This document shows, piece after piece, positions 1,712 through 35,818 of a stretch of DNA of 39,986 nucleotides (the stretch's first letter is position 1; each line of letters opens with the position of its first letter). The DNA is taken from the NCBI GenBank assembly GCA_040902285.1, contig JBBDXP010000009.1, forward strand, positions 1-39,986, written 5' to 3'. The position numbers and the translations under genes were made by a program. The notes beneath the pieces were generated by a model. It saw only the letters and a program-made list of their open reading frames with translations, had not been told where the DNA came from and searched no databases. Source of the DNA: Candidatus Spechtbacterales bacterium. Lineage in GTDB: Bacteria; Patescibacteriota; Minisyncoccia; Spechtbacterales; 2-12-FULL-38-22.

Positions 1712-1796
1712 GCCGCGGTGGTGGAATTGGTTTACACAGCTGACTTAAAATCAGTGCCCGAAAGGGTTGAGGGTTCGAGTCCCTCCCGCGGCACCA
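1712..1796 (+). tRNA. tRNA-Leu(TAA), type II with long variable arm, CCA encoded
   Basis: Manual cloverleaf: acceptor gccgcgg/ccgcggc, anticodon loop cttaaaa (anticodon TAA), long variable arm, T-loop ttcgagt, 3' gcacca. Confidence 0.85.
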
Positions 1797-1984
1797 CGAT
1801 CACGCTTGTGCGTGGTCGAAATTGAACGAAGTGAAATTTTGTGACGGGGGAAGCAAAGCAATCTGTTTTGCTTTGCGCGGGACTCGAAAGGCGGACTGAC
1901 CCCGCCGCAGACGGGGGAGGGAGCCCGGGCAGGAAGTGCTTAGCGATGACGAGCGAAGCGAGGCAGAGCTTAGCAACTTGACGC

Positions 1985-2007
1985 CGAGTCCCTCCCGCGG
2001 CACCACG
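1985..2007 (+). repeat. 23-nt direct repeat of the tRNA-Leu(TAA) 3' end, followed by a GC hairpin
   Basis: cgagtccctcccgcggcaccacg at 1776-1798 is repeated exactly at 1985-2007. Both copies are followed by a short GC-rich hairpin (cacgcttgtgcgtg / cggccacgcctgggcgtggccg). Confidence 0.8.
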
Positions 2008-2033
2008 GCCACGCCTGGGCGTGGCCGAATCAT

Positions 2034-2428: not shown

Positions 2429-2502
2429 GGGCGCTTAGCTCAGTTGGCTAGAGCGACTCGTTTACACCGAGTAGGTCGGGGGTTCGAGCCCCTCAGCGCC
2501 CA
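2429..2502 (+). tRNA. tRNA-Val(TAC)
   Basis: gggcgct/agcgccc acceptor, anticodon stem actcg/cgagt with loop tttacac, T-loop ttcgagc. Confidence 0.85.
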
Positions 2503-2705
2503 CAAATCACATAGTGATTTTGGGCGTGGGGGCGAGAACCCAAGAAAGGGGTCGGGAAAACATTTGTTTTCCCGCCTGCGTGGCCGAAGCCACTTCGTCG
2601 AGGCGAAGGCCCGTGGCGGAACAATTAAAACCGAGGGGCTTCGGCCGTGAGCTCAGCCGAACGGTTTTAAGGAGCGAAGCGACGGGTTCTACGAACGCAG
2701 TGAGG

Positions 2706-2724
2706 GAGCCCCTCAGCGCCCACA
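2706..2724 (+). repeat. 19-nt direct repeat of the tRNA-Val 3' end
   Basis: gagcccctcagcgcccaca at 2486-2504 is repeated at 2706-2724, ~220 bp downstream. The intervening sequence is GC-rich with several UUCG/GAAG-type tetraloop hairpins. Confidence 0.8.
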
Positions 2725-2732
2725 GCAAAATC

Positions 2733-2803
2733 GCGGGTGTAGTATAGTGGTAATACACCACCTTGCCATGGTGGAGCCGAGGGTTCGATTCCCTTCACCC
2801 GCT
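2733..2803 (+). tRNA. tRNA-Gly(GCC)
   Basis: gcgggtg/cacccgc acceptor, anticodon stem ccacc/ggtgg with loop ttgccat, T-loop ttcgatt. The 3' end cccgctcaaa recurs at ~2851-2860 within a pair of small hairpins. Confidence 0.85.
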
Positions 2804-2921
2804 CAAAATTATGAAATAATTTTGAGCGAGGCTCGCTCATCTTCGATGAGCGGCCCGCTCAAATTGCAAAATAGCACATTGTGTGCTATTTTATTATTAG
2901 CACATTCAAAGGAGTAAATAG

Positions 2922-5319: not shown

Positions 5320-7143
5320 TTACGCCGAGGCCATTAATTTTTCAAACTCCTTTTTTTCTATGGTTTCTTTTTCCATAAGGTGCTTTGCCAGTTTCTCTAA
5401 CTTGCTTCTATTTTTTTGAATGGTAACTTTTGCTATTCTTTGGGCTTCTTTTATGAATTTAGATACTTCCTTATCTATGGTGTAGGCAATTTCTTCCGAA
5501 TAGTTTCTTTGTCCGGCCAATTCTTTTCCCAAAAATACCATTTCTTCGGTGTCGCCAAACACAACAGGGCCTAGCTTGTTGCTCATTCCATATTTGGATA
5601 CAAGGCGCCTTGCCAAGTCAGATGCTCTTTTTAAATCATCCGATGCGCCGGTTGATATGTCATTCAACACCATTTTTTCGGAAATATATCCTCCCAAAAG
5701 TACCGCAAGTTCGGCTTCAAACTGCGCCTTGGTTCTGAAGCTTCTTTCTTCCGTGGGAACTTTTAACGTATAACCCCCGGCCTGTCCGCGGGATATTATG
5801 GACACTTTGTGTACAGGGTCGCTTTCGGGCAGGGCGTTTGCAACAACTGCGTGTCCCGCTTCATGGTACGCGGCGGTTTCTTTATCTCTTTGCGTGTAAA
5901 CCCTGCTCTTTTTCTCCGGTCCAAGCATAACTTTTTCTATTGAATCAAGAAGGTCAACTTGTTCTACACTTTTTTTATTTCTCCGTGTGGCGTATATAGC
6001 CGCTTCATTCATTAAGTTTTCCAAATCAGCCCCGGAAAAACCGGGAGTTCTTGCCGCTATTTCTTTTATATCCGTGTTTCTGGCAAGCGGTTTTCCTTTT
6101 GCGTGCAGTTTAAGTATGGCCTCTCTCGCTCTAAGATCCGGCAGGCCTATTATCACGCGGCGGTCAAACCGGCCTGGGCGCAAAAGCGCTGGATCCAGCA
6201 CATCGGGACGATTTGTGGCCGCCATAACTATTATGCTTGCTCCTTGCTCGAAACCGTCCATTTCGTTGAGTATCTGGTTGAGAGTTTGTTCGCGTTCATC
6301 ATTTCCTCCGCCCATACCCGCGCCCCGGAGCCGTCCGACGGCGTCAATTTCATCTATAAATACAATGGCGGGGGAGTTTTTCTTGGCGGTTTCAAAAAGG
6401 TCTCGCACACGGCTCGCTCCAACGCCCACGAACATTTCTACGAATTCTGACCCGCTTATGGAATAAAAGGGAACACCCGCTTCTCCCGATATAGCCCTTG
6501 CCAAAAGTGTTTTTCCGGTTCCCGGGGGGCCCATAAGCATAAGCCCTTTTGGTATGCGCGCGCCCATTTTAAGAAATTTGCGGGGAGTTTTTAAAAATTC
6601 TACTATCTCTTTTAGTTCTTCTTTTTCTTCATCTTCTCCTGCCACATCTTTAAAGGTTATCCCTTGTTTTTTACCTTGCGCCCCTCCGAATAATTTTGCT
6701 TTGGCCTTGCCGAATGTGAATGCCTGCGAAGCGCCTCTTTGCATTCCGCCAAGCATAAACCAAAGAAAAAGTCCTATTATTATAAATGGAATTAATATGG
6801 GTATTGCTATACCGATCCAGAAAAGTAATCCGCTCTCACCTTTTAATTCAAGATTAACTTGCGCTAAATTGTCCTCTCGTACGCCGTAATTTCGCAATGT
6901 TTCGGTAAGCGACGCTTCAGCTTCTTTTTGTGATTTTTGTTTTTCGCCATTTTTAAGGGTTATTTCCAGTTCAGAGCCGGATACAACGATACTTTCCACT
7001 TCTCCTTCGTTTATTTTGGTGGCCAAAGTGTTTAAAGAAATTTTTTCGGCTTCTTGTCCGGGAGAATAAAAAAACGTGGCGAAACTGATAATTGCTATAA
7101 AAACCAATGCAACTATCATTATGTTTTTTGTTAGAGATTTCAT
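5320..7143 (-). CDS. ftsH: ATP-dependent zinc metalloprotease FtsH
   Basis: N-terminal TM helices, Walker A GPPGTGKT, Walker B/second region of homology, and the HEAGH zinc-binding motif. Length is 607 aa. Confidence 0.95.
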
Positions 7144-7221
7144 GCGATATTAAAATTTTACTTTTATTTATTGTAGCACAGGGGAATTTTATATCACATA
7201 CCCAACAAAAATTCAATAAAA

Positions 7222-7259
7222 TAAAAAAGTGCCCCGCTCGCGTTAAGCGAACGGGGCAC
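7222..7259 (-). terminator. Rho-independent terminator of the GC-rich gene
   Basis: Read on the minus strand: gtgccccg-ttcgcttaacgcgag-cggggcac followed by ttttttatt. Confidence 0.65.
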
Positions 7260-7271
7260 ACGGGGCCCGGA

Positions 7272-8033
7272 CTAGCTGTCCGAACTCTCCTCTGAGACCT
7301 CGGCGGCCTCAGTTGTCTCCGGAGCGGTCTCCGCCGAGGCCTCCGAAGAGGTCTCATTGGCATGCCGCGCCTGTCGGAGAAGGCGCTTCTCGTCGCGGAC
7401 GCTGAAGTACTCCATGAGCACTCGGGCGCCCTTCACTCGGCCCTCATTCCGCATCTGCTCGGCAGCTGCGGAAACGAGGTCGTTTCCGAGGTTGACGTGC
7501 AGCCACTCCTTGCCGTTCTCGGACTTCGGCACGATGATCTTGCGATCCTCGGTGCCGTAGTTGGCAAGAGCGGTGTGGTTCAGCCCTTCGACCTCCAGCG
7601 CTTGCCGGAGCTTGGCGGACTTGAAGCCCACATCGAGGAGGTTCTGTCCGGATGTCCGGGCGGCCGCGAACAGCGACTGCACCGGAACTCGTCCGCTCAG
7701 AACTGGAACCACGAGACGGAAGACCACCTGCGCGCGGGACTGCTCGTTGAGCTGGTCCATGCGGTTCTGGAGATCCTCGAACTCCTCCGGCTGCTCTTCG
7801 TGCGGACGGCGCGTCGTGATGCGCTTTGCCGCGTTCAGGGCAGCGAAGAAGGGATTCTCGGAACCCTGTCCCGAAGGAGCACGGTTGCCGATGCTGGCGC
7901 GCGGGGCCCTGGCTGGTGCCTTGGCCTCGCTCTCGCTCGAACCAGAGATCTGGTTCTCCTGCATCTGCGTCTGCAGGTTCTCGATCTGCTCCGGAGTGAT
8001 CTCCTTGGGGGAGACACTTCTCTTGCTAGCCAT
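7272..8033 (-). CDS. Hypothetical protein encoded in a GC-rich (~60%) island, probable horizontally acquired gene
   Basis: A GAAGGAGG RBS lies 7 nt before the ATG (MASKRSVSPKE...). The ORF has strong GC3 codon bias unlike its neighbours, an acidic S/E/T-rich C-terminus, and no family I can recognise. The long plus-strand ORFs over the same region are typical GC-rich antisense artefacts. Confidence 0.6.
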   Translation of the reverse strand: MASKRSVSPKEITPEQIENLQTQMQENQISGSSESEAKAPARAPRASIGNRAPSGQGSENPFFAALNAAKRITTRRPHEEQPEEFEDLQNRMDQLNEQSRAQVVFRLVVPVLSGRVPVQSLFAAARTSGQNLLDVGFKSAKLRQALEVEGLNHTALANYGTEDRKIIVPKSENGKEWLHVNLGNDLVSAAAEQMRNEGRVKGARVLMEYFSVRDEKRLLRQARHANETSSEASAETAPETTEAAEVSEESSDS

Positions 8034-8108
8034 AATTACCTCCTTCAAGGTTGGCTATCTGACCGATGTCGGCGCTTTTGCGCCTTAAGTTCACTGGGAA
8101 CTGCAGTA

Positions 8109-8137
8109 ATATTAGCATATTTACTAAAAAATGTCAA
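8109..8137 (-). promoter_or_regulatory. Sigma70-type promoter for the GC-rich gene (TTGACA-17-TAATAT)
   Basis: On the minus strand: TTGACA (8137-8132), the 17-nt spacer ttttttagtaaatatgc, then TAATAT (8114-8109). Confidence 0.6.
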
Positions 8138-8155
8138 CATTAGTTGACATTTTTT
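8126..8155. promoter_or_regulatory. Perfect palindrome AAAAATGTCAAC-atta-GTTGACATTTTT: rpsA terminator overlapping the -35, candidate operator
   Basis: The 12-bp arms are perfectly inverted around a 4-bp spacer. With the minus-strand T-run the palindrome works as a terminator for rpsA, and one arm contains the TTGACA -35 of the downstream gene. Confidence 0.55.
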
Positions 8156-24326: not shown

Positions 24327-25571
24327 CTAAAAATTTTCCGTTATTAATTTTCCACTTTCGGCTTCCATGTTTTTCCAGTCGGATTTTTCTCCCGCCAAGT
24401 GGCGCAAATATCCTGCGGCGGCTATCATAACCGCATTATCCGTAGACAATTTAATTCCCGGGAAAATGACGGATGTTCCGGGAACCTTTATAGGTATTTC
24501 TTTTTCAAAATTTTCTCTCAAAGTTTTGTTAGCGGCAACTCCGCCCGCCAATATAACTGTTTTTGCCTTATGGTCCTGAGCCGCTTTGGCTGTTTTGGAT
24601 ACAACAGAATCTATTACGGCTTTTTGGAAAGAGGCTGCTATATTTGCCGTTTGCTTAGTTTTTTCGTCTTCAGTCATTTTTTCAACAGTATATCGCACCG
24701 CGGTTTTTAATCCCGAAAAGCTGAAATTGTAATCTTTTGAATTAATCATTGGCCGTGGGAATTTGAAGGCCTCCGCATTGCCTTTTTGTGCCAATTTTTC
24801 TATTTCAGGTCCGCCCGGGAATCCAAGCCCCAGCAGGCGGGCCACTTTGTCAAATGCTTCTCCCGCGGCATCGTCCACCGTTTCTCCTAAAAGCTCGTAC
24901 TTTAGCCAATCCCTAACAAGTATTAATTGCGTGTGGCCTCCGGATATCGCCAGAGCAACAGCCGGAAATCGTATTTTGTTTGAAATTTGGGTTTTTGAAT
25001 TTGGGGCTTGTTTGGAAATTGAAAATTGGTCATTGGAAATTCCGTTATTCTCTGAAAGGAGAATAACGGCTATGTGTCCTTCCATGTGGTCTACGCCGAT
25101 TATTGGTATGTCCCACAGGCGCGACAGCGCGCGGGCGAAGTTTATGCCTACCCACAGCGCCGGTTCAAGCCCGGGCCCTTGCGTTACGGCTATCAAGTCG
25201 ATATCCGGCTTTTCAAGAGGAACAATCTTTTCTTTAAATTCGTTCGCTAAATCTTCATATCTTTCAAGTATTTCTTCTACATTTTGAATTTTGTCATTTG
25301 GAATTTGTTTGGAATTTGTTTCTTGGGATTTGGAATTCCCGTAATTTAATGAAAGTGTCTCGTAGAGCACTTTAACCAAATTACGGCTGTGTTCTCTTTT
25401 TGCCAGTCCGGGAACAACTCCTCCATATTCTTTATGCACGCTTAATTGCGATGAAATGACACTTTTATCTATTTTGTATTGAGGTTTTTCTAAAGACCCC
25501 GTGGCTTCAACAAGGGCAAGAGCGGTATCATCACAGGATGTTTCTATTCCCAATATTCTAATTGTTTTCAT
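24327..25571 (-). CDS. tsaD: tRNA N6-adenosine threonylcarbamoyltransferase TsaD (Kae1/YgjD) with two low-complexity insertions
   Basis: The MKTIRILGIETSCDDT N-terminus and the metal-binding His pair (DHMEGH) are present. The 414-aa length exceeds the usual ~340 because of N/S/K/Q-rich insertions encoded by the ggaatttg-type repeats at ~24950-25040 and ~25290-25340. The track ORF starts at an upstream TTG; the ATG at 25571 matches the family N-terminus. Confidence 0.8.
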   Translation of the reverse strand: MKTIRILGIETSCDDTALALVEATGSLEKPQYKIDKSVISSQLSVHKEYGGVVPGLAKREHSRNLVKVLYETLSLNYGNSKSQETNSKQIPNDKIQNVEEILERYEDLANEFKEKIVPLEKPDIDLIAVTQGPGLEPALWVGINFARALSRLWDIPIIGVDHMEGHIAVILLSENNGISNDQFSISKQAPNSKTQISNKIRFPAVALAISGGHTQLILVRDWLKYELLGETVDDAAGEAFDKVARLLGLGFPGGPEIEKLAQKGNAEAFKFPRPMINSKDYNFSFSGLKTAVRYTVEKMTEDEKTKQTANIAASFQKAVIDSVVSKTAKAAQDHKAKTVILAGGVAANKTLRENFEKEIPIKVPGTSVIFPGIKLSTDNAVMIAAAGYLRHLAGEKSDWKNMEAESGKLITENF

Positions 25572-25721
25572 TTTTTGTAGATTACTATATTGTTGTATGC
25601 TTAACAACTGAACAAAGTTGACTTATGACTATTTTTCAGTAAAATATATAGGTGGCACTGGTCCCATCGTCTTGCAGCCTGCTCTTTGTAATCCAAAATC
25701 AATTTGACGGAGCGAATTTTA

Positions 25722-25800
25722 AAAAGATTCGAGGCCTGAGGAGCGAAACGCACATATGTGCATGAGCGACGAAAACAAAGAATCTTTTTAAAATTCGCCC
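25722..25800. repeat. 19-bp perfect inverted repeat forming a long hairpin with a nested palindrome
   Basis: gcgaattttaaaaagattc (25725-25743) pairs with gaatctttttaaaattcgc (25778-25796). The loop contains gcacatatgtgc. Confidence 0.7.
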
Positions 25801-25832
25801 GCCCAACCCCAACTATGAATAATTAACTTTGC

Positions 25833-25907
25833 GGTCCCATCGTCTAGTCCGGCCTAGGACGCCAGGTTTTCATCCTGGTAACACGGGTTCGAATCCCGTT
25901 GGGACCG
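25833..25907 (+). tRNA. tRNA-Glu(TTC)
   Basis: ggtccca/tgggacc acceptor, 3-bp D stem gtc/gac with loop tagtccggcctag (the E. coli Glu-like architecture), anticodon loop ttttcat, T-loop ttcgaat. The tRNA is flanked by a perfect 15-nt complementary leader and trailer (aataattaactttgc / gcaaagttaattatt). Confidence 0.85.
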
Positions 25908-26055
25908 CAAAGTTAATTATTTGAGATTTTAGGGAAACAAAAAAGCACGCTATCTGCCGCGTTGCTCCTCCTCGAAATAGCGCTATTGCTATTATTCCTT
26001 CGTCGTTGCGCCTTGCATCTAGCATACTTTTTTGTTTTCAAATTGATTTTAGATT

Positions 26056-26131
26056 GCAAAGAGCAGGCTAAGGCCTAGGACGCCAGGTTTTCATCCTGGT
26101 AACACGGGTTCGAATCCCGTTGGCTCTGCCA
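26056..26131 (+). pseudogene. tRNA-Glu-like pseudogene: 52-nt exact copy of the tRNA-Glu 3' portion joined to a non-matching 5' side
   Basis: 26072-26123 is identical to 25850-25901 of tRNA-Glu. The acceptor 3' strand (tggctct-g-cca) does not pair with the upstream sequence. The inverted repeat caaagagcaggct (26057-26069) matches agcctgctctttg (25676-25688), which sits next to a 13-nt tRNA-Glu 5' fragment (25660-25672). Confidence 0.6.
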
Positions 26132-26145
26132 CTCATTAAGAATTT

Positions 26146-26169
26146 AAAAAGCGGCTTTTGCCGCTTTTT
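26146..26169 (+). terminator. Rho-independent terminator
   Basis: aaaaagcggc-tttt-gccgcttttt. Confidence 0.7.
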
Positions 26170-26244
26170 AAATTGACTTAAGCTACATTTTATAGCATCA
26201 TATCCTTAGAAAATTGTTCATTGACAAAAGAAAGGAGGTCAAGA

Positions 26245-27908: not shown

Positions 27909-27946
27909 TAACCTAGATTGATAGTACCTTGAAAAAGGAGGACGAA

Positions 27947-29842
27947 GTGGCCGAAGAACCTCAAATACAAAATACTCAAAAGAATTCTAAAGAATTCGAT
28001 GTACTTATCGCAATATCCACAGAACTGCGGGAAAAAGCGAACGGTATGTTAAGTGAGGATTTTGTCCGTCATATAGACGATATAACAGAAAAAGCGGATG
28101 AACTTGAGACCGCGCGAAAACTGCAGGCGCAGGAGGCGTCGAGGGATATCCAGCAAAATAAGCTGGCCTATCTTAATAAAATAAGAGAACTTAGCATAGA
28201 ACTAAATCAACTTAGCCGAATGCTGAGCGCTCTTAAGGAACAGCCCCCGCTGATGTCTGCCAAATTTGTTAGATTTGTCCGTTATCATGAAATAGAAGAA
28301 TACGGCAAGAAGGTAAAGATTCCAGTTGTGGATATTGTAAATTCCAGCGGTTCCAACGCGCGCGTTTTTGTGCATCCGGAGCTGGATGTTTCCAATGTTA
28401 AGTATGGACAGCGCGTTCTTGTAAGCGCGGGCAACATGACTATAATGGAAATTTTGCAAGAATTCGAGGTTATAGGACAAGAAGCATATGTCGAGGCTCT
28501 CTTGGAACCCGATTTTGAAGGTAAGCGTGTTTTGGTATCGGAAGGCCAGCTGGACATGAAAATAGTGGCGCATCTGTCCTCTTCCGTGGAAGATAAAGAA
28601 ATGGAAGAAGGCACTAGGGTTCTTGTAGATACAAAGACATCTTTGGTCGTGGAAGTGCTTCCCGAGCATGAGAGCCGCCGTTACATTGTGGGCGAAATCC
28701 CAAATGTCACTTTTTCTGATATCGGAGGCCTGGACGGCATTATCGCGAGGATAGACGAGCATGTTATATGGCCTATAATCTATCCCGATGTGTGGGAAAA
28801 AATAGGATTGGATTCTCCAAAAGGATTTGTGCTTGCCGGCCCGCCGGGTGTGGGCAAAACCATGATTGCCAAGGCGTTGGTAAACTATCTTAATGAAAAA
28901 CTCGAGGAAGTTCATGGCAAACCCGTACAGGGCCGTTTCTTCCACATTGCCGGACCTGAAATTCAAAACAAATATGTGGGCGAGACCGAACGCATTATGC
29001 GCGAGATATTTGCCCAGGCGGCAAAGAATGCTTCTCCGCTAAGCCCCTCCTTGGTATTTTTTGACGAAGCGGACGCGCTTTTCCCAAGACGCGGTTCGGG
29101 AGTCTCCTCCGATGTTGAAAAGACGAATGTTACCCAATTTACAGCCCTTATGGACGGCCTTGAGACCAGGAGCAACATTATAGTTGTTTTGGCGACAAAC
29201 CGCCCCGAACTTTTGGATCCCGCGGTCATACGGCCCGGGCGCTCGGACTTCACTGTGGATGTTCCGCGGCCCAACGAAGAAGCCGCCAAAGCCATTTTTG
29301 CCAAATACATAAGGCCCGAATGGGGGCAGATAAATCCTAAATACGATCAGGAGGTTTATATTCCAAAAGACAAAAAGGGCAATACGCGCGTTGATGACTC
29401 CGGAAGTGATATAAAACTTTACTTCGGACACAAGCCGCAAGAGGTTGTGGATTATCTTATCGCTAAAGCAACAGCGCGCATGTACGATCTGGACAATCCA
29501 AGAAACAAATTTATCAAACTCAAGTTTAGGGATTATTCGGAAAAAACTCTCCGTTACGGCGATTTTGCCTCCGGCGCTATGATTAAAAATATAGTGGATC
29601 GTGCCAAGAGATTTTCCGTTCATGATCATAAGGTTGGAGGTGAAGAACTCGGGATAACTCTCGTACACCTGTACAAAGCCATTGAAGAGGTCTTTTCTGA
29701 GCTTAGGGGTCCTTCCGGAGCCGGCGATTCCAGCACCTGGCTTGAAATAGAAGGCCATGTCCGCGGAAATAACGTTACGGGAATAGAATTTCTATCCAGA
29801 GATGCGGATGATTCTGACGATGATGAAGAGCCCATTTTATAA
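27947..29842 (+). CDS. ARC/Mpa-like (proteasome-associated-ATPase family) AAA ATPase
   Basis: An N-terminal coiled-coil (…LSIELNQLSRMLSALKEQ…) is followed by a tandem OB-fold inter-domain (…NARVFVHPELDVSNVKYGQRVLVSAGNMTIMEIL…). The single AAA module has Walker A GPPGVGKT, KYVGETERIMREIF, and Walker B/arginine finger VVLATNRPELLDPAVIRPGR. The C-terminus …DDEEPIL has no GQYL/HbYX docking motif. Confidence 0.8.
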   Translation: MAEEPQIQNTQKNSKEFDVLIAISTELREKANGMLSEDFVRHIDDITEKADELETARKLQAQEASRDIQQNKLAYLNKIRELSIELNQLSRMLSALKEQPPLMSAKFVRFVRYHEIEEYGKKVKIPVVDIVNSSGSNARVFVHPELDVSNVKYGQRVLVSAGNMTIMEILQEFEVIGQEAYVEALLEPDFEGKRVLVSEGQLDMKIVAHLSSSVEDKEMEEGTRVLVDTKTSLVVEVLPEHESRRYIVGEIPNVTFSDIGGLDGIIARIDEHVIWPIIYPDVWEKIGLDSPKGFVLAGPPGVGKTMIAKALVNYLNEKLEEVHGKPVQGRFFHIAGPEIQNKYVGETERIMREIFAQAAKNASPLSPSLVFFDEADALFPRRGSGVSSDVEKTNVTQFTALMDGLETRSNIIVVLATNRPELLDPAVIRPGRSDFTVDVPRPNEEAAKAIFAKYIRPEWGQINPKYDQEVYIPKDKKGNTRVDDSGSDIKLYFGHKPQEVVDYLIAKATARMYDLDNPRNKFIKLKFRDYSEKTLRYGDFASGAMIKNIVDRAKRFSVHDHKVGGEELGITLVHLYKAIEEVFSELRGPSGAGDSSTWLEIEGHVRGNNVTGIEFLSRDADDSDDDEEPIL

Positions 29843-29859
29843 AATCGCACATTCTTTTG

Positions 29860-29887
29860 ACCCCCGACTGCAAAGCGGGGGTTTTTA
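29860..29887 (+). terminator. Rho-independent terminator
   Basis: acccccg-actgcaaa-gcgggggt followed by ttttatttt. Confidence 0.75.
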
Positions 29888-29898
29888 TTTTAATAAAA

Positions 29899-29927
29899 TT
29901 GACACACGACCGCCAAACGACTATACT
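29899..29927 (+). promoter_or_regulatory. Sigma70-type promoter TTGACA-17-TATACT upstream of the dop-like gene
   Basis: ttgaca cacgaccgccaaacgac tatact. The 5'UTR attagtaccttaaaaaggagg shares the agtacctt(g/a)aaaaaggagg motif with the ARC and Lon-like leaders. Confidence 0.6.
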
Positions 29928-29962
29928 TAGTGCAATTAGTACCTTAAAAAGGAGGCATAAGC

Positions 29963-31579
29963 ATGCCTGACAAGCCGCGCAAGATAATAATTGGCGCTGA
30001 AACCGAATATGGAATATTTGCGACAGAAAACGGCCAAATACTTGATAATGAGGCCTTAGGACTTGTGAGAGAGGCCGAAAATGTAACCAAAGATTTTTTC
30101 CTTCGCCCGCTTGAGGGCATAGAAGATACCGAAGAACATGAAAATCTTGATTCTATGACTGATGAGGATTTTTTGCGCCAACCGGAAAGTTATCAAAGTT
30201 CCGGAGAAAGGCAGAGGCGCGGCCTTACCGGTTTTGTTCTCTCAAACGGATGCAGATTCTATGTTGATATGGGTCATCCGGAGTATTCAATTCCCGAAAC
30301 AACAAATCCCATGGATGCTCTTGTCGCGCAAAAAGCGGGAGACAGGATAGTTGAGCTTTGCAGAAGATTATTTGAGGAAAGATTAAAGAACGAAAATAGG
30401 AATATTTCGATTCGTTTGGATAAAAACAATAGCGACGGTAAAGGGAACAGCTATGCCGCGCACGAAAATTATTCTCTTACCCCCGAAACCTTTACGGAAA
30501 TAACTAATCGTTATGGGTCAAGAGAGTTGGAAGATATTGTGTTGAATTTTTTCACCACGCGCCAGATAGTGACAGGGGCCGGAAAGGTTGGATACGAGAC
30601 AGGAAGACCCGTTCCATACCAAATAAGCCAGCGTGCGGATTTTATTGAAAAGGAAAAAAGCTTAAACACGGTCGAAAAGAGGGGGATAATAAATTTGCGG
30701 GACCATTCCTATGCCGGATACGATGATGTCCGCAGATTGCATGTTATATGCGGAGACGGCAACATGTCCGAATTGTCTCTGTATCTTAAATTCGGCACAA
30801 CAGCGCTTATTTTAATGATGCTTGAAAGCGGATTTATACAGAGCGAAGGAAGTTCTGTTTTGATTCGCATGCAAAATCCCGTCCGCTCGTATAAAAATGT
30901 ATCAAGAGACCTTTCCCTGGGCCACAAGATATTTTTTGAGGACGGTTCTAAAAGGACCGCTTTAGCCATACAGGAGGAATTTTATTCTCTGGCCAAAAAA
31001 TTTACCGATGGAAACGATATTGATCCTATATGGCGCGATGTCGCAGACAAGTGGGAAAAGGTTTTGCACGGTCTTGCCGGGGAAAGAAATTCTGATGAAT
31101 GGGCCGGCAATCTGGACTGGGTTAAAAAAGAAACCATACTCAAACGGCATCAGGAGAAAAAAGGAGTTTCTCCGCTTCATCACACATGCCGCGCCGTGGA
31201 TCTTCAGTACCACAACATAAATCCCGAAAAAAGCATTTATTGGCGCCTGGCTGAAAGAGGAGACATACTTTTGTTTGCCACCAAAGCCGATATAGAGAGG
31301 GCTATTAATGAGCCACCTTCGGACACAAGGGCGTGGTTCAGAGGGCAAACCGTTAAACAGTTTAGAAATGTTCTGGACGGTATCGGCTGGCAATATATTA
31401 AATTTGCCGATAAATACATTTTTATGGGCAATCCATTTTCTGGTTCAAAAGAAGCAGCAGAGAGTATTTTTGCGGGGGTTTCTTCTCCGGAAGAATTTAT
31501 TGAAAGATTGTCGAAAGCAATTGAACGGAAGGAGAGTGGATTGGAGGGCTTTAGTGTCGGAGAAGGGTGGTTGATATAA
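29963..31579 (+). CDS. dop: Pup-ligase-family protein, Dop-like (depupylase/deamidase-type)
   Basis: The N-terminal IIIGAETEYGIF strand (Dop-type E-Y-G) is followed by a ~45-aa insertion before the conserved RFYVDMGHPEYS block, consistent with a Dop loop. The carboxylate-amine-ligase fold is retained at 538 aa. The Dop versus PafA call is an inference. Confidence 0.7.
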   Translation: MPDKPRKIIIGAETEYGIFATENGQILDNEALGLVREAENVTKDFFLRPLEGIEDTEEHENLDSMTDEDFLRQPESYQSSGERQRRGLTGFVLSNGCRFYVDMGHPEYSIPETTNPMDALVAQKAGDRIVELCRRLFEERLKNENRNISIRLDKNNSDGKGNSYAAHENYSLTPETFTEITNRYGSRELEDIVLNFFTTRQIVTGAGKVGYETGRPVPYQISQRADFIEKEKSLNTVEKRGIINLRDHSYAGYDDVRRLHVICGDGNMSELSLYLKFGTTALILMMLESGFIQSEGSSVLIRMQNPVRSYKNVSRDLSLGHKIFFEDGSKRTALAIQEEFYSLAKKFTDGNDIDPIWRDVADKWEKVLHGLAGERNSDEWAGNLDWVKKETILKRHQEKKGVSPLHHTCRAVDLQYHNINPEKSIYWRLAERGDILLFATKADIERAINEPPSDTRAWFRGQTVKQFRNVLDGIGWQYIKFADKYIFMGNPFSGSKEAAESIFAGVSSPEEFIERLSKAIERKESGLEGFSVGEGWLI

Positions 31580-32976
31580 TGAAAGACAGAGCCGTTGGTA
31601 TAGAAAATGAATTTGGCGTAATGCTTAAGGATGATTTTGGCAATTTTAGTTCTCAAGAGAACGAAATGCTGGCCATTAACAGCATTCCTCGTGAAAATTT
31701 GCCTCAAGGGGGTGGAATGTCCAACGGACGTTTCTGGCTTGCCAACGGAGGCAGTGTATACATAGACCTGGGCCATCCGGAATATGCTTCTCCCGAATGT
31801 CTCAGGTTGCGTGATCTGATTGCTGTAAGCCGCGCGGGAGAGAGGATTTGTTCCCGTATGTTCCATTACGCTGTTAGTAATGGAAGGTATTGGCAGCTTT
31901 TTAAGAATAATTTGGAAATTAGCGCCGAAGGAGGAGAAGGAAATTCGTTCGGATGTCATGAAAATTATCTCATTCACGGATATAAGCCGGAAGACGAGGT
32001 CATGCATACGCATCTTCTTCCCTTTCTGATAACTCGGCAGATATTGGACGGAGCGGGATGGTGGGCTTCGGACGGCAGATTTTCATTTTCTCAAAGAGCG
32101 TTGATTTTGGGCACCGTGGCGGCAATGGGTACCACGGAGGGGATAAGCCGTCCCATCATAAATCTTAGAGACGAGCCCCATATACAGAATAGGGAAGGAA
32201 TGAGCAGGTTGCATCTCATTTTGGGCGATGCCAACATGCTGGACTGGGCCTTGTATCTTAAATTCGGTACCACCTCCCTTGTACTGGCCATGCTTGAAGA
32301 AGGCCATATATTCAGGGATACGTGCCAAAATCCCATTGAAGCCATGCGCAGAGTGGCGTTTGATAAGACCGCGCGGAAACGGCTATTGAAATTTAGCGGG
32401 CGCGGGAAAATGAGCGCGCTAGAAGTGCAGGAATTTTACCTTGCCAAAGCCGAAAAATACGTCTCTATAACTGATTTTGCAAGCTACGAAAGCAGATTGG
32501 AAGCGCTCCAAACCGTGTGCATGTGGCGCGAGGCCTTAAATGCGATAAAAAATCGCGATACCGCATGGATGCTCGGACGGCTTGATTGGGCAACAAAGCT
32601 GTATCTTGGAAACAAAGAGTGGTCGAACAAAAAAAATTCGGGCGCTAGTGAAATGGACATCAAAAAACGCGTTGATATTCTTTATCACGCCGTGACCGAC
32701 ACAAGATTGCGCGACCGAATATATGCCAAGTGGCCGAACAGGCAGCTGGTCGGCGGACAGGAAATTGAGTATATGATAAATAATCCCCCACTGGACACCC
32801 GCGCGAGAATAAGGGCGTTGTTTATTGATCTCTGCTCAAAAAAACAATTCGGCACGGATAAGGACATATCTGTGAATTGGTCCAAAATAGTATATAGAGG
32901 CAAGGCGTTTAACTTGGGATACCCTTTAGACAAGGATAATCTCGAGGTTGAGAAACTTATCAGAAATCTCTTGTAA
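31579..32976 (+). CDS. pafA: Pup-ligase-family protein, PafA-like
   Basis: VGIENEFGVM (PafA-type E-F-G) with no loop insertion; SVYIDLGHPEYASPE; 466 aa. Its ATG overlaps the dop-like stop as TAATG, which suggests translational coupling. The track ORF begins at an upstream GTG (31567). Confidence 0.7.
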   Translation: MKDRAVGIENEFGVMLKDDFGNFSSQENEMLAINSIPRENLPQGGGMSNGRFWLANGGSVYIDLGHPEYASPECLRLRDLIAVSRAGERICSRMFHYAVSNGRYWQLFKNNLEISAEGGEGNSFGCHENYLIHGYKPEDEVMHTHLLPFLITRQILDGAGWWASDGRFSFSQRALILGTVAAMGTTEGISRPIINLRDEPHIQNREGMSRLHLILGDANMLDWALYLKFGTTSLVLAMLEEGHIFRDTCQNPIEAMRRVAFDKTARKRLLKFSGRGKMSALEVQEFYLAKAEKYVSITDFASYESRLEALQTVCMWREALNAIKNRDTAWMLGRLDWATKLYLGNKEWSNKKNSGASEMDIKKRVDILYHAVTDTRLRDRIYAKWPNRQLVGGQEIEYMINNPPLDTRARIRALFIDLCSKKQFGTDKDISVNWSKIVYRGKAFNLGYPLDKDNLEVEKLIRNLL

Positions 32977-33343: not shown

Positions 33344-35818
33344 GTGCCTGCCGAAGAAAGAGACGGTATACGGGAGTTAAATCCTGAAGAGCTTTGCCGG
33401 AAATGGCAGCCCGAAGAGTTTAATTCCGAAGTTGAGCCCGATACGGGATTTTCCAACGGAGTTTGGCTGGGTATCAGCCAAGATCGCTTGTTCAAAGCGC
33501 TTGATTTCGGTTTGAGCAGAGACGCACCGGACCATCATATATTTGTTTCTGGAATAACGGGCCCAACGGTTTTGGAGGCCCTTGAGAAGTTTGTTCTGGA
33601 TTTTGAAAACAAGAACACTGGAGAACTGTCCCAGTTGCGGGATTGGTGCTATGTATATAATTTTGACAATCCCCGCAACCCCGTTGCGATTCCTCTGCCC
33701 GCGGGCAGAGGAAAGGTACTGCGCTTTAAGATGAAAAAGAATCTGTCTCGTTTGCAGGATGCCATACCAAATGCTCTCAACAGCGAGAATGTCGCGCAGG
33801 AACATTTGCGGGCGACCAGTGAATTCAATGATTGGTTTTCGGCCGCGCAGGAGAGCACAAGGAAAAGAGCTGCCGAAAACCAAGAGGCGATAGTGGAGTT
33901 CGGTGATTCCGGCTTTGACGTCAACATCATTCCGTGGCGCTATAAGAGTTTGAACGAAGAAGAAAGGGAAGAGCTGGGCAGAACCCTCGCTTCCAAAGAA
34001 AAACAGCGCGACAGGAACACGATAAGCAAATACATGCCCGAGATTATAGCAATACGGAATGAATTTCTCAAAAGAGATGCAAAGTTGCGCGAGGAATTAA
34101 ACCGAATAAATCAAAGTGCCATAAAAGAAGCCATACAAGGGGTGTTTAGAAGTTTGCGCGGAAAACTCAGCGAAAACAGCAGAAGTACCGCTCTTACAAG
34201 ATATATAGACAGCGTTGAGAAATTTGCCACAGAAAATTACCCAATTTTTCTTCAAGGCAAAAATAAAACGGTACCTAGAGTGGCCAAACAGGAGCCTGAC
34301 ATCTTTATTCCCTGGGAAGTAAATGTGTTTGTCGATAACAGCAACGCCAAAGGCCCGCCCGTTGTCATAGAGCTTGATCCGACATTCGAAAACCTTGTCG
34401 GAAGGATTGAAAAAGTGGTAATGGCGGGTGGAATGGTTTCAACGGACCATACCAGAATAGCAGCCGGTTCGCTCGCGCAGGCAAACGGCGGATATCTGCT
34501 TTTGAATATTCGCGATGTTCTTGTGCGGCCGGGAGCTTACGAAGCTCTTAAGAACGCTGTAAAGAATAAAACTCTGGAAATTTCCGAACTCATGTCCGCT
34601 ATGGGTTATGGTTCAATGTCTTCTCTGGATCCGACACCCATTCCGCTTAATCTTAAGCTTGTAGTTACGGGCATTCGAGGTTTGTGGGAGTATCTTTCAC
34701 ATGCGGATCCGGAATTTTCAAGCATATTTAAGATAAAGGCGGATGTAAATCCGGATGTTGATCGCAGTCCCGACGAGGCATCGGCGTGGGCCCGGTGGAT
34801 GACTAAGCAGTATTCCGAACACGGGCTTCTGCCGCTTGAAAACGATGCCATGGGGCGGATAATTGATTACGCTTCGCGTGTTGCCGGTTCCAAAAAGCGT
34901 ATAGCCACTAATTTTGGGCTTTTGCAGGATTTGATGAGCGAATCTTCTTATGTTGCCAAAAAAGAAGGTGCTGAAAGAATAAGCGCCCAACATGTGCGTA
35001 GTGCCATAGCGGACAGAAAATTCCGACTCAGTTTGTATCAGGAACGCCGTCTTAGGAGCATACAAGAAAGCCACACGCTGATAGATGTAGAGGGTGGCGC
35101 GGTTGGTCAAATTAACGGCTTAGTTATTTTTGGGGGCAGGACTGAAGATGCTTGGTTTGGCGGTCCTAGCCGTATAACGGCGCAGGTTTCTATGGGAAAG
35201 CCGGGTTTTATCAATATTCAGCGAGAATCCAAAATGTCCGGACCTTATCTGGATATGGCCGACGCCATAGTCAACCGTTATCTTATGGGTACATATGCTA
35301 AGAAGTATCCCATTGCTTTACAGATAAGCATCGCCTTTGAGCAATCATATGGCGGGGTGGACGGAGACAGTGCCTCTCTCGCGCAGTTGTATGCCACGCT
35401 TTCGGCTGTGGCCGAAGTGCCAATACGCCAGGATGTTGCCATAACGGGTTCTCTTAACCAAAGAGGGGCCGTGCAGGTCATTGGCGGAGTTAACGATAAG
35501 ATAGAGGGATTTTTTGACGCATGCCTTGCCAAAGGCGGGCTTTCGGGAACCCAGGGAGTTATTATTCCCGAAGGCAATGTTTCTGATTTGATGCTTCGCG
35601 AAGATGTGGTTGAAGCTGTCCAAAATGGCAGGTTCCATGTTTGGGCAGTAAGCCATGTGAGCGGAGGTATCAAGATTCTACTGGGTATGCCCGCAGGAGA
35701 GCGTGATAACGAAGGCAAATTCCCCGAAGGTACATTTAACGCGATTGTGGATGAAAAACTGCAAAGTTATGCCCGCAACGCGAAAAACTTCTTTAAAGAT
35801 GAAGAAGCGGAAAAATAA
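33344..35818 (+). CDS. Lon-like (S16 family) serine protease with a degenerate AAA-like domain lacking Walker A (LonC-like)
   Basis: The C-terminal protease domain has DGDSASLAQLYATLSAV (compare the Lon PKDGPSAG catalytic Ser block) and ITGSLNQRGAVQVIGGVNDKIEGF (compare the Lon TGEITLRGRVLPIGGLKEK catalytic Lys block). No GxxxxGK[ST] motif occurs anywhere in the 824 aa. Confidence 0.7.
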   Translation: MPAEERDGIRELNPEELCRKWQPEEFNSEVEPDTGFSNGVWLGISQDRLFKALDFGLSRDAPDHHIFVSGITGPTVLEALEKFVLDFENKNTGELSQLRDWCYVYNFDNPRNPVAIPLPAGRGKVLRFKMKKNLSRLQDAIPNALNSENVAQEHLRATSEFNDWFSAAQESTRKRAAENQEAIVEFGDSGFDVNIIPWRYKSLNEEEREELGRTLASKEKQRDRNTISKYMPEIIAIRNEFLKRDAKLREELNRINQSAIKEAIQGVFRSLRGKLSENSRSTALTRYIDSVEKFATENYPIFLQGKNKTVPRVAKQEPDIFIPWEVNVFVDNSNAKGPPVVIELDPTFENLVGRIEKVVMAGGMVSTDHTRIAAGSLAQANGGYLLLNIRDVLVRPGAYEALKNAVKNKTLEISELMSAMGYGSMSSLDPTPIPLNLKLVVTGIRGLWEYLSHADPEFSSIFKIKADVNPDVDRSPDEASAWARWMTKQYSEHGLLPLENDAMGRIIDYASRVAGSKKRIATNFGLLQDLMSESSYVAKKEGAERISAQHVRSAIADRKFRLSLYQERRLRSIQESHTLIDVEGGAVGQINGLVIFGGRTEDAWFGGPSRITAQVSMGKPGFINIQRESKMSGPYLDMADAIVNRYLMGTYAKKYPIALQISIAFEQSYGGVDGDSASLAQLYATLSAVAEVPIRQDVAITGSLNQRGAVQVIGGVNDKIEGFFDACLAKGGLSGTQGVIIPEGNVSDLMLREDVVEAVQNGRFHVWAVSHVSGGIKILLGMPAGERDNEGKFPEGTFNAIVDEKLQSYARNAKNFFKDEEAEK

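Follow-up and report, generated by a model that had tools for sequence, protein, structure and literature searches.

The window analyzed here, meaning the whole stretch of DNA under study, comprises positions 1 to 39,986 of the forward strand of contig JBBDXP010000009.1 (assembly GCA_040902285.1) from a Candidatus Spechtbacterales bacterium. At 25618-26174 it contains a nested pair of tRNA-Glu genes: an intact tRNA-Glu(UUC) lies inside a 399-bp non-coding insert, and fragments of a second, outer tRNA-Glu flank this insert on both sides. Comparison with relatives' loci, which were collected through TsaD homologues (L085/L086 by a metagenome scan) and carry L numbers below, indicates that the outer fragments are what is left of an ancestral tRNA-Glu gene split by the insert. 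The elements listed in the original prediction from the letters of the DNA (intact tRNA-Glu, 13-nucleotide (nt) and 52-nt copies of parts of it, inverted repeat and hairpin) are all present. The features of the locus are given below; I1, I2 and I5 designate inverted repeats, and R1 is a covariance model built from a four-lineage alignment of the left hairpin module.

25618..25645, + strand: promoter of the ancestral tRNA-Glu unit (TTGACT, 16 nt, TAAAAT); 10/12 matches in a promoter scan; aligns with the promoter of L085/L086/L027/L087
25651..25657, + strand: leader GGTGGCA, which pairs with TGCCACT (26128-26134) at the outer CCA end; outermost helix of the minimum-free-energy fold
25660..25672, + strand: outer (ancestral) tRNA-Glu 5' fragment, nt 1-13; exact copy, orthologous to the start of the L086 tRNA-Glu
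25673..26071, + strand: 399-bp non-coding insert of left arm, inner tRNA-Glu and right arm; absent from L085/L086/L027, with full-length homology to the L157 insert
25676..25707, + strand: left arm of the terminal inverted repeat (I1-L); 32 nt, 94%; two compensatory double changes relative to L157
25698..25809, + strand: conserved hairpin module, sense copy; R1, 106.8 bits
25818..25832, + strand: 5' strand of the inner acceptor-stem extension (I2-L); 15 bp; three compensatory changes relative to L157
25833..25907, + strand: inner intact tRNA-Glu(UUC); ARAGORN, Rfam
25907..25921, + strand: 3' strand of the acceptor-stem extension (I2-R), from the discriminator base; inverted repeat, fold
25927..26047, - strand: degenerate inverted hairpin module, which holds the hairpin 25935-26037; R1, 29.9 bits, E = 0.0014
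26038..26069, + strand: right arm of the terminal inverted repeat (I1-R); 32 nt, 94%
26072..26131, + strand: outer tRNA-Glu 3' fragment, nt 19-76, exact to 26123; 95% identical to the L086 3' part
26141..26174, + strand: hairpin past the outer 3' end (AATTTAAAAAGCGGC/GCCGCTTTTTAAATT), a likely ancestral terminator; inverted repeat I5, with a similar hairpin after the L085/L086 tRNA-Glu

Anatomy of the nested tRNA-Glu genes

The inner tRNA-Glu is intact according to both ARAGORN and Rfam (tRNA model, 61.4 bits) and folds as a normal cloverleaf, with an acceptor strand that reads TGGGACC-G-CA and therefore ends on CA, not CCA. It is identical to the L027 tRNA-Glu over 76 nt and, as read from the sequences, to that of L086 up to GGGACCGC. 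A repeat finder returned 25660-25672 as an exact 13-nt copy of tRNA-Glu nt 1-13 (i.e. of 25833-25845), and 26072-26123 as an exact 52-nt copy of nt 19-70, extending from the D-loop to the T-arm. At the junctions, where the flanks read CGTCT-TGC and AA-GGCC, the D-loop sequence AGTCCG (6 nt) is replaced by TGC...AAG. The inverted repeat AGCCTGCTCTTTG/CAAAGAGCAGGCT, first described as 13 bp long and as directly abutting the 52-nt copy, is real, but it extends over 32 nt at 94% complementarity (25676-25707/26038-26069; chance expectation for such a repeat in the window ~0.01), and AA intervenes between its right arm and the copy.

It had also been claimed that the 52-nt copy runs to an encoded CCA. 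Both copy and CCA are there, but exactness stops at 26123, after which the outer acceptor 3' strand reads TGGCTCT (inner gene, TGGGACC) and then G-CCA (26128-26131). Opposite GGTCCCA, these three substitutions produce two central mismatches; because the outer 3' strand cannot pair with GGTCCCA, the outer tRNA-Glu gene is dead in the window. The same number of substitutions means that no single-base correction restores the outer acceptor stem, which rules out the rescue by sequencing-error correction that had been contemplated. The three changes also give rise to complementarity to AGAGC at 26062-26066. Together with the end of the right terminal repeat, the outer 3' fragment (26056-26131) folds as a crippled cloverleaf ending in CCA, and the Rfam tRNA model matches it weakly (26060-26128, 35.2 bits). 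This piece was considered as a second functional tRNA and rejected, since its score reaches the Rfam threshold through the duplicated anticodon and T arms and its acceptor and D arms are crippled.

The insert is highly structured. The hairpin with a 19-bp stem noticed earlier is present, although its span is 25712-25798 and not 25722-25800; the inner acceptor stem is prolonged by 15 bp (25818-25832/25907-25921; z = -8.9 for 25810-25930), a second, 23-nt imperfect hairpin occupies 25935-26037, and the 491-nt region has a folding z of -12 relative to shuffled sequence. No open reading frame (ORF) longer than 51 aa is found within 25650-26140. No promoter-like site is present inside the insert, and upstream of the inner tRNA the tRNA strand has only the old promoter, from which the inner tRNA is therefore presumably transcribed. 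The hairpin at 26141-26174 is not called by the terminator scan, which demands a T-run.

Empty and occupied sites in related lineages

The closest relatives, L085/L086, have TsaD proteins 73-77% identical to that of the window. In both, an hslU-like gene and tsaD flank a single uninterrupted tRNA-Glu, which stands behind the promoter TTGACTTAT...TAAAAT and the leader ...GGTGGCGCT. Window positions 25618-25672 (promoter, leader and 13-nt fragment) are 91-93% identical to this stretch, and 26072-26132 is 95% identical to the L086 tRNA 3' part including GCCA, the sole three differences being the acceptor-strand change GGGACC to GGCTCT. With the same promoter standing before an uninterrupted gene in L085/L086, the outer fragments represent the ancestral tRNA-Glu, broken after nt 13, and 25673-26071 is an insert. 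The complementarity between leader and CCA end, also readable in the L086 sequence as GTGGCG/CGCCAC, ties the outer ends together as one former transcription unit. The tRNA-Glu is likewise simple in L027 (a Candidatus Spechtbacterales metagenome-assembled genome (MAG), TsaD 60%), L087 and L162; across the simple-gene loci TsaD identity is 58-73%, with L085/L086 at the upper end. The orthologous loci thus bear out the original proposal that an insertion bounded by an inverted repeat split an older tRNA-Glu while carrying another, and further backing comes from L157, which has a homologous insert with the same terminal repeat at the same position.

Relative to tsaD/hslU, the promoter-tRNA-Glu-hairpin cassette (window 25572-26244) is inverted with respect to L085/L086/L027, and cassette orientation differs likewise between L155 and L163, so that the tRNA-Glu locus is also prone to inversion. 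Both cassette orientations recur across Patescibacteria.

Homologous or comparable interruptions were found at the following loci.

L157 (GCA_040879145.1), TsaD 62%: same element in the same place, with GGTCCCATCGTCT, terminal repeat, hairpin, extended stem, inner tRNA-Glu, second hairpin, repeat and outer 3' part
L155/L156, TsaD 67%: outer nt 1-29, a 269-nt element bounded by inverted repeats with both modules side by side, spacer, tRNA-Glu, outer nt 44-76
L163, TsaD 60%: both modules (left terminal repeat truncated), spacer, extended-stem tRNA-Glu, outer nt 44-76; outer 5' fragment gone
L161, TsaD 57%: 15-nt 5' fragment, left module and tRNA only; no outer 3' half
L130 and L090, TsaD 51-53%: tRNA nt 1-13, then an unrelated-looking position-matched insert of ~100 nt, different from the above and bounded by 13-nt terminal repeats, then the full tRNA
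L159, TsaD 64%: contig begins exactly at GGCCTAGGAC

In L157, the 5' fragment is again 13 nt long, the outer 3' acceptor strand is intact with its CCA and abuts tsaD, and the cassette has the ancestral orientation. The L155 tRNA-Glu carries the same ACTTTGC/GCAAAGT stem extension as that of the window, and on reading its sequence the L155 element is bounded by a different, 24-bp terminal inverted repeat. The L090 contig terminates within the insert. Wherever the module occurs (window, L157, L155/L156, L161 and L163), tRNA fragments accompany it, and the family is defined here by a ~115-nt module upstream of an extended-stem tRNA-Glu, in or beside remnants of the resident tRNA-Glu. Homologous inserts occupy the tRNA-Glu of at least four other lineages, some with other breakpoints, and sister lineages are clean. 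These related inserts point to an undescribed family of elements living in tRNA genes.

Mis-assembly, through a collapsed or chimeric repeat, had been named as a way in which the nested structure might dissolve. Short-read assemblers do break at the 52-nt repeat: the contig of an independent Logan assembly (SRR27977660) ends where that repeat starts, and the L159 contig starts at GGCCTAGGAC, as expected if that segment is repeated. However, the Logan assembly recovers the left junction base for base; the nested architecture is shared by L157, an NCBI MAG (GCA_040879145.1) that is ~25% diverged and has compensatory changes; and the related structure of L155/L156 is assembled identically by ENA and JGI. 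An assembly artifact can therefore be excluded for practical purposes, and we attach a negligible probability to it.

The same loci bear on the possibility that the interruption is removed from RNA. In such a scheme, the I1-bounded segment would be an intron whose excision allows the outer halves to be ligated (CGTCT joined to GGCCTAGG) into a second tRNA-Glu, the inner tRNA being released from the intron. Helix I1 draws the outer halves together; taking out the segment it bounds leaves, on reading the sequence, an outer D-loop of the normal 11 nt that retains its GG, in L157 as in the window; the acceptor strand and CCA of the L157 outer gene are intact; and tRNA introns are abundant in Patescibacteria (PMC13011429). 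We nevertheless consider an intron very improbable. The outer acceptor stem of the window is broken by its two central mismatches, the outer halves in L155/L163 (1-29/44-76) have no anticodon loop, and L161 has no outer 3' half. The tRNA introns described in Patescibacteria are group I introns situated in the anticodon loop (PMC13011429), whereas the insert shows no group I or group II signature, Rfam being blank in this respect at E <= 1 over 25600-26200. A group I/II intron was rejected on the lack of an Rfam Intron_gpI match, at the gathering threshold in the window or at E <= 1 over 25600-26200, and on exons that form no functional tRNA. An intron or split tRNA of the bulge-helix-bulge (BHB) type was rejected as well: sequence and fold show no BHB motif, the junction helix having one 2-nt bulge on one strand only, and the host and its gene content are bacterial, although no search was aimed at the endonuclease.

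A conserved module and the origin of the insert

The insert is built of two inverted copies of a ~115-nt module, the left one conserved and the right one degenerate. For the left module, RNAalifold predicted 23 pairs in the alignment of four lineages, eight of them with compensatory changes. Sense copies score 106.8 (window), 125.4 (L157), 123.9 (L155/L156), 110.1 (L161) and 82.8 bits (L163) with R1, which also finds the right arm in antisense (window 29.9, L155 24 and L163 31 bits). This match on the opposite strand identifies the element as a palindrome of two copies of one module, the antisense one being in decay. In the aligned left-module stems, G·U on the tRNA-sense strand is the wobble type, and the mismatches in the right hairpin of the window read as C·A, which would be G·U in antisense. 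The pattern fits a right arm that is an inverted duplicate, as opposed to an RNA selected on the sense strand. Between the window and L157, compensatory double changes number two in I1, three in I2 and three in I3. The two insert arms are 76% and 74% identical in this pair, as against 42% and 31% at third codon positions of tsaD and hslU, respectively, and 47% in the upstream spacer, so that the arms must be either constrained or younger than the genomes.

In a rough neighbor-joining tree of TsaD, the window and L086 form one pair and L157 and L027 another, the second member of each pair being empty; L155, L163 (via its TsaD, P0007), L087 (empty) and L161 come together. By inspection of the aligned sequences, the modules fall into the groups (window, L157) and (L155, L163, L161), congruent with this tree. 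An old association with the tRNA-Glu locus followed by repeated loss is the simplest reading; the different breakpoints (13/19, 15 and 29/44) suggest independent insertions, which are possible.

Searches for the module among known sequences were negative. Rfam reported only tRNAs, both in the whole window at the gathering threshold and, at E-value thresholds, in 25600-26200, 1650-2900 and eight related loci; IMG/VR viral contigs contained no real match to the module, the terminal repeat or two core motifs of the X elements described below. Separately, the HslU-like protein gave no match in a scan of genome contigs, and a look-up returned no record of it. The 52 viral-contig matches to a 15-base motif were dismissed as chance, being in coding sequence. 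A hammerhead core in the recurring TGA-N-GAGCGAA was also discarded, because its CUGA part varies between lineages and the sequence does not allow stem II.

The explanation that we favor, and think somewhat likelier to be right than wrong, is that a palindromic, tRNA-carrying, non-coding element inserted at the DNA level and compensated for the damage it caused, the old promoter expressing the inner tRNA and the remnants slowly decaying or recombining away. A single ancestral tRNA-Glu(UUC) unit, consisting of promoter, tRNA and hairpin, would have been cut in the D-loop between nt 13 and nt 19 by a 399-bp non-coding palindrome made of two inverted ~115-nt modules, a closing 32-bp repeat and a central tRNA-Glu whose acceptor stem is longer by 15 bp. 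The element would have entered by insertion, as distinct from ancestral presence or building in place, presumably through trans-acting machinery or a recombination pathway. As it would supply a working tRNA-Glu, loss of the resident gene would cost nothing. The old promoter would now yield one long precursor, from which the normal end-processing enzymes could free the inner tRNA, possibly aided by cleavage of the long helices, and the outer halves would be dead remnants, with the outer acceptor strand of the window already bearing its three substitutions. Recombination at the 13-nt repeats could delete the left arm, recombination at the 52-nt repeats could delete the right arm to give the L161 form, and both together could restore a clean gene; arm deletion of this kind would explain the one-armed forms and the clean sister loci. 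Among relatives of Candidatus Spechtbacterales, the family as a whole would be bound to the tRNA-Glu locus.

Several observations weigh against this explanation. The sense module, module(+), is kept far above the neutral level, for which a purely dead insertion does not account. Scanning the 40-kb window and ~0.55 Mb of related loci with R1 turned up no additional copy, leaving one per locus. Modules that are congruent with the host tree fit vertical inheritance with losses, and so possibly function, as well as they fit mobility. There is no target-site duplication, six D-loop nucleotides being replaced and not duplicated; no recombinase, transposase or integrase domain was detected in window ORFs of at least 150 aa; and the inner tRNA has the ancestral sequence, with which a local duplication remains compatible. 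The initial claim of an insertion accordingly holds as far as a gene split by an insert with a tRNA cargo is concerned, whereas mobility in the strict sense is unsupported, given a single copy per locus and neither target-site duplication nor transposase. Without a target-site duplication, and with no dispersed copies in the window or the related loci, the element is not a textbook miniature inverted-repeat transposable element (MITE). Nor is it an integrase island, since it lacks an integrase and has the wrong topology. Models with a single crossover, by integrase or by homologous recombination, were worked through on paper, and neither yields the nested order.

The conservation of module(+) raises the question of function. 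It might be a leader or trailer, i.e. a cis-acting structured RNA or a co-transcribed small RNA needed by, or benefiting, the tRNA-Glu precursor, with I1 and I2 as processing stems like those of rRNA operons and the tRNA fragments as scars of its arrival. The sense scores of 83-125 bits in five lineages with covariation, set against 24-31 bits for the antisense copy, would be expected of such an RNA, as would wobble pairs that are G·U on the tRNA-sense strand, arm conservation well over that of neutral sites, a module that always lies at the tRNA-Glu locus downstream of the tRNA promoter, and a grouping of modules congruent with the host tree. Yet the sister loci L086, L027, L087 and L162 manage without the module, I1 in L155/L163 encloses only the modules and leaves the tRNA outside, no known RNA family is matched, and function alone does not explain duplicated tRNA pieces on both sides. 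We hold this functional reading to be unlikely, if worth keeping in view.

Local rearrangement without any mobile element is, in our estimation, improbable. Here the tRNA-Glu would have been duplicated in place, template switching at hairpins in the course of replication or repair would have produced the arms, and this instability would also have inverted the cassette. An inner tRNA with the ancestral sequence would follow naturally, and so would the lack of a target-site duplication and of a recombinase (among window ORFs of at least 150 aa). The inversion of the whole cassette relative to tsaD/hslU between window and L086 and between L155 and L163 is of the same kind, and the clustered acceptor substitutions that create complementarity to AGAGC in I1-R are typical of quasi-palindrome template switching. 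However, the arms have no counterpart at the empty-site loci, the same ~115-nt module recurs in lineages with other breakpoints and another internal order, and similar structured inserts with shared motifs are present at other tRNA genes.

Inserts at other tRNA genes and comparison with known systems

The nested logic proposed earlier for the tRNA-Ile locus of the window was recovered: an outer tRNA-Ile(UAU) at 2034-2329, complete in its four arms, is split by 221 nt where its anticodon loop ends (ARAGORN intron mode), and this interruption holds an intact, different tRNA-Ile(UAU) at 2178-2252, flanked by inverted repeats of 19 nt and 18 nt; both anticodons are TAT. At tRNA-Leu(UAA) (window 1712-2029), the gene precedes a GC-rich, structured insert of 188 nt, to which an insert at the L155 tRNA-Glu locus is homologous; next comes a 21-45-nt copy of the gene's 3' end (from the T-loop to the CCA end plus the trailing hairpin, 45 nt at 89%). 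Downstream of tRNA-Val(UAC) (window 2429-2724), the 3' part of the gene recurs in inverted, degenerate form, and after it come a 202-nt structured insert and 19 nt that repeat the 3' end exactly. The heptamer GAGCGAA occurs ten times in the window, and five of these occurrences, all on the tRNA strand, fall inside the inserts (1797-1984, 2073-2177, 2504-2705 and 25673-25832), which make up 2.2% of the window; it is also part of the terminal repeat of the L130 insert. Among the Patescibacteria loci collected, it is common for an intact Val, Ser, Arg or Glu tRNA gene to have an orphan tRNA 3' part lying 120-280 nt downstream.

Many of these inserts constitute an 'X' family, composed of an inverted T-loop/T-stem copy ('anti-T'), a conserved core and a direct copy of the tRNA 3' part. 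RNAalifold gave 25 pairs for seven members, 15 of them with compensatory changes, and the closing helix, in which anti-T pairs with the T-loop/T-stem of the duplicated 3' part, covaries with the identity of the host tRNA. R2, a model of this family, matches the Leu insert of the window (1878-1999, 80 bits) together with nine or ten further loci. X elements occur at five tRNA identities (loci L109, L133, L136, L103, L031, L037, L003 and L155) and correspond to no Rfam family.

It is conceivable, although we would put it forward only tentatively, that Patescibacteria harbor undescribed non-coding tRNA-gene elements of two kinds, the palindromic tRNA-Glu module and the T-loop X elements. These might recognize their targets by base pairing, as proposed from the anti-T helix of the X element, which always matches the host tRNA, and might neutralize the damage with a carried whole tRNA or the missing tRNA part; in that case they would be homing elements guided by RNA or DNA, or else a novel type of ribozyme or intron, and not decayed integrase islands.

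Further structures were observed at other tRNA genes. The Val insert shares AGAAAGGGGTCGGGAAAACATTT.TTTTC with L161 and ttaaaaccgagGGgttttaaggag with two L049 inserts, and looks like a second subfamily. After tRNA-Gly(GCC) (window 2733-2870), a 13-bp hairpin follows the gene and a 10-nt copy of its 3' end (CCCGCTCAAA) lies ~50 nt beyond, which may be a small example of the same pattern. In L097 (1940-2510), three copies of tRNA nt 1-12, the first two in tandem 124 nt apart, precede tRNA-Val(GAC), and downstream of it come a 191-nt insert and a duplicate of the tRNA 3' end that includes a trailer of ~50 nt.

The window is otherwise ordinary chromosome, encoding TsaD, a class I aminoacyl-tRNA synthetase, GyrA, FtsH, ribosomal protein L19, S1, RecG and VanW, as well as two Pup-ligase homologues, an Mpa-like ATPase and three genes resembling type IV secretion system (T4SS) pilins. 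Its tsaD gene (24327-25571, - strand) encodes 414 aa and matches the Pfam model in three separate stretches, suggesting insertions relative to the ~340-aa canonical protein. The Mpa/ARC-like AAA ATPase, the two Pup-ligase-family genes and a LonC-like protease lie at 27929-32976 and 33344-35818; a pupylation-type gene set in a Patescibacteria genome may merit attention. Positions 7001-8150 have 56% G+C (~43% elsewhere) and long overlapping ORFs (7272-8048, - strand; 7362-8147, + strand), with no Pfam match and no Rfam match at the gathering threshold.

The tRNA genes of these tiny genomes are single-copy and essential, yet they have been repeatedly invaded and rebuilt. For annotation, standard tools report the inner gene only and miss the remnants, and ARAGORN in intron mode joins inner with outer pieces, creating false genes with introns. 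The locus provides a bacterial example, with empty and occupied sites both in hand, of a tRNA gene that has been split, nested and replaced, a subject so far discussed mainly in archaea. The covarying ~115-nt module and the T-loop family that tracks its host tRNA are candidates for a new mobile-element mechanism or a functional RNA, and the direct and inverted repeats of these elements can drive deletions and cassette inversions like those seen between sister lineages.

Williams reportedly described in 2002 that integrative elements prefer the anticodon loop, the T-loop and the 3' end as sublocations within tRNA genes. The tRNA-Glu insert resembles integrase islands and prophages in that a tRNA gene is broken at a loop or within it, tRNA sequence comes in with the insertion and the displaced fragment stays as a direct repeat. 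A functional tRNA has likewise been regenerated, the inner tRNA-Glu scoring 61.4 bits and being identical to the tRNA-Glu of relatives. By contrast, islands restore the tRNA with the element's own copy of the 3' part, whereas here a whole tRNA is nested between fragments on both sides; the insert has no integrase, measures only 399 bp, breaks the D-loop and is a palindrome with terminal inverted repeats. When compared with an att-type arrangement, the 52-nt 3'-side direct repeat fits, but the extra 13-nt 5' repeat and the inverted arms are not predicted by a single att crossover.

Bacterial MITEs and foldback or palindromic elements, such as the Rickettsia palindromic elements, are small, non-coding and hairpin-prone, have terminal inverted repeats and are tolerated inside genes. 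The tRNA-Glu insert shares with them its terminal inverted repeats (32 bp, 94%), which are conserved in L157 through compensatory changes; unlike MITEs, it lacks a target-site duplication, has a tRNA gene as cargo and is bound to the locus of the cognate tRNA. In Nanoarchaeum equitans, split tRNAs, tRNA-Glu among them, are encoded as functional halves that are joined in trans by the archaeal splicing endonuclease at an anticodon-loop position. Both cases have a tRNA-Glu in separate 5' and 3' pieces with complementary sequences adjoining, but here the host is bacterial, the halves are remnants and the working gene lies between them.

A closer parallel in arrangement is the tRNA-Thr of Caldiarchaeum subterraneum, where a recombinase-encoding element of 1.8 kb separates a 5' tRNA fragment from a full tRNA-Thr (Sugahara et al. 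2012, PMC3293823). There, too, an element lies between a 5' fragment and, downstream, the complete gene of the same tRNA, and the arrangement was read as disruption by a mobile element (PMC3293823). That case differs in being archaeal, in the 1.8-kb length, recombinase and six copies of the element, and in the BHB-type introns of the full tRNA; neither a 3' fragment nor palindromic arms are described (PMC3293823). Within the same phylum, group I introns of Patescibacteria tRNA genes lie in the anticodon loop (e.g. at position 35/36) and splice to give one tRNA (Nakagawa et al. 2026, PMC13011429). They, too, are structured, non-coding, RNA-like interruptions of tRNA genes that standard annotation often misses (PMC13011429); the tRNA-Glu insert differs from them in its D-loop site, the second tRNA inside, the broken outer stem, the duplicated tRNA pieces and the lack of a group I signature. 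The literature searched yielded only this group I intron paper and the archaeal analogues, with no bacterial tRNA gene nested in a disrupted copy of itself and none of these modules. That an insertion into a tRNA gene can be made harmless by the tRNA sequence it carries is already known from integrase islands and C. subterraneum (PMC3293823). What appears to be new is the carrier: a small non-coding palindrome with a whole tRNA at its center, tied to the cognate gene, among a broader set of structured tRNA-gene inserts in Patescibacteria.

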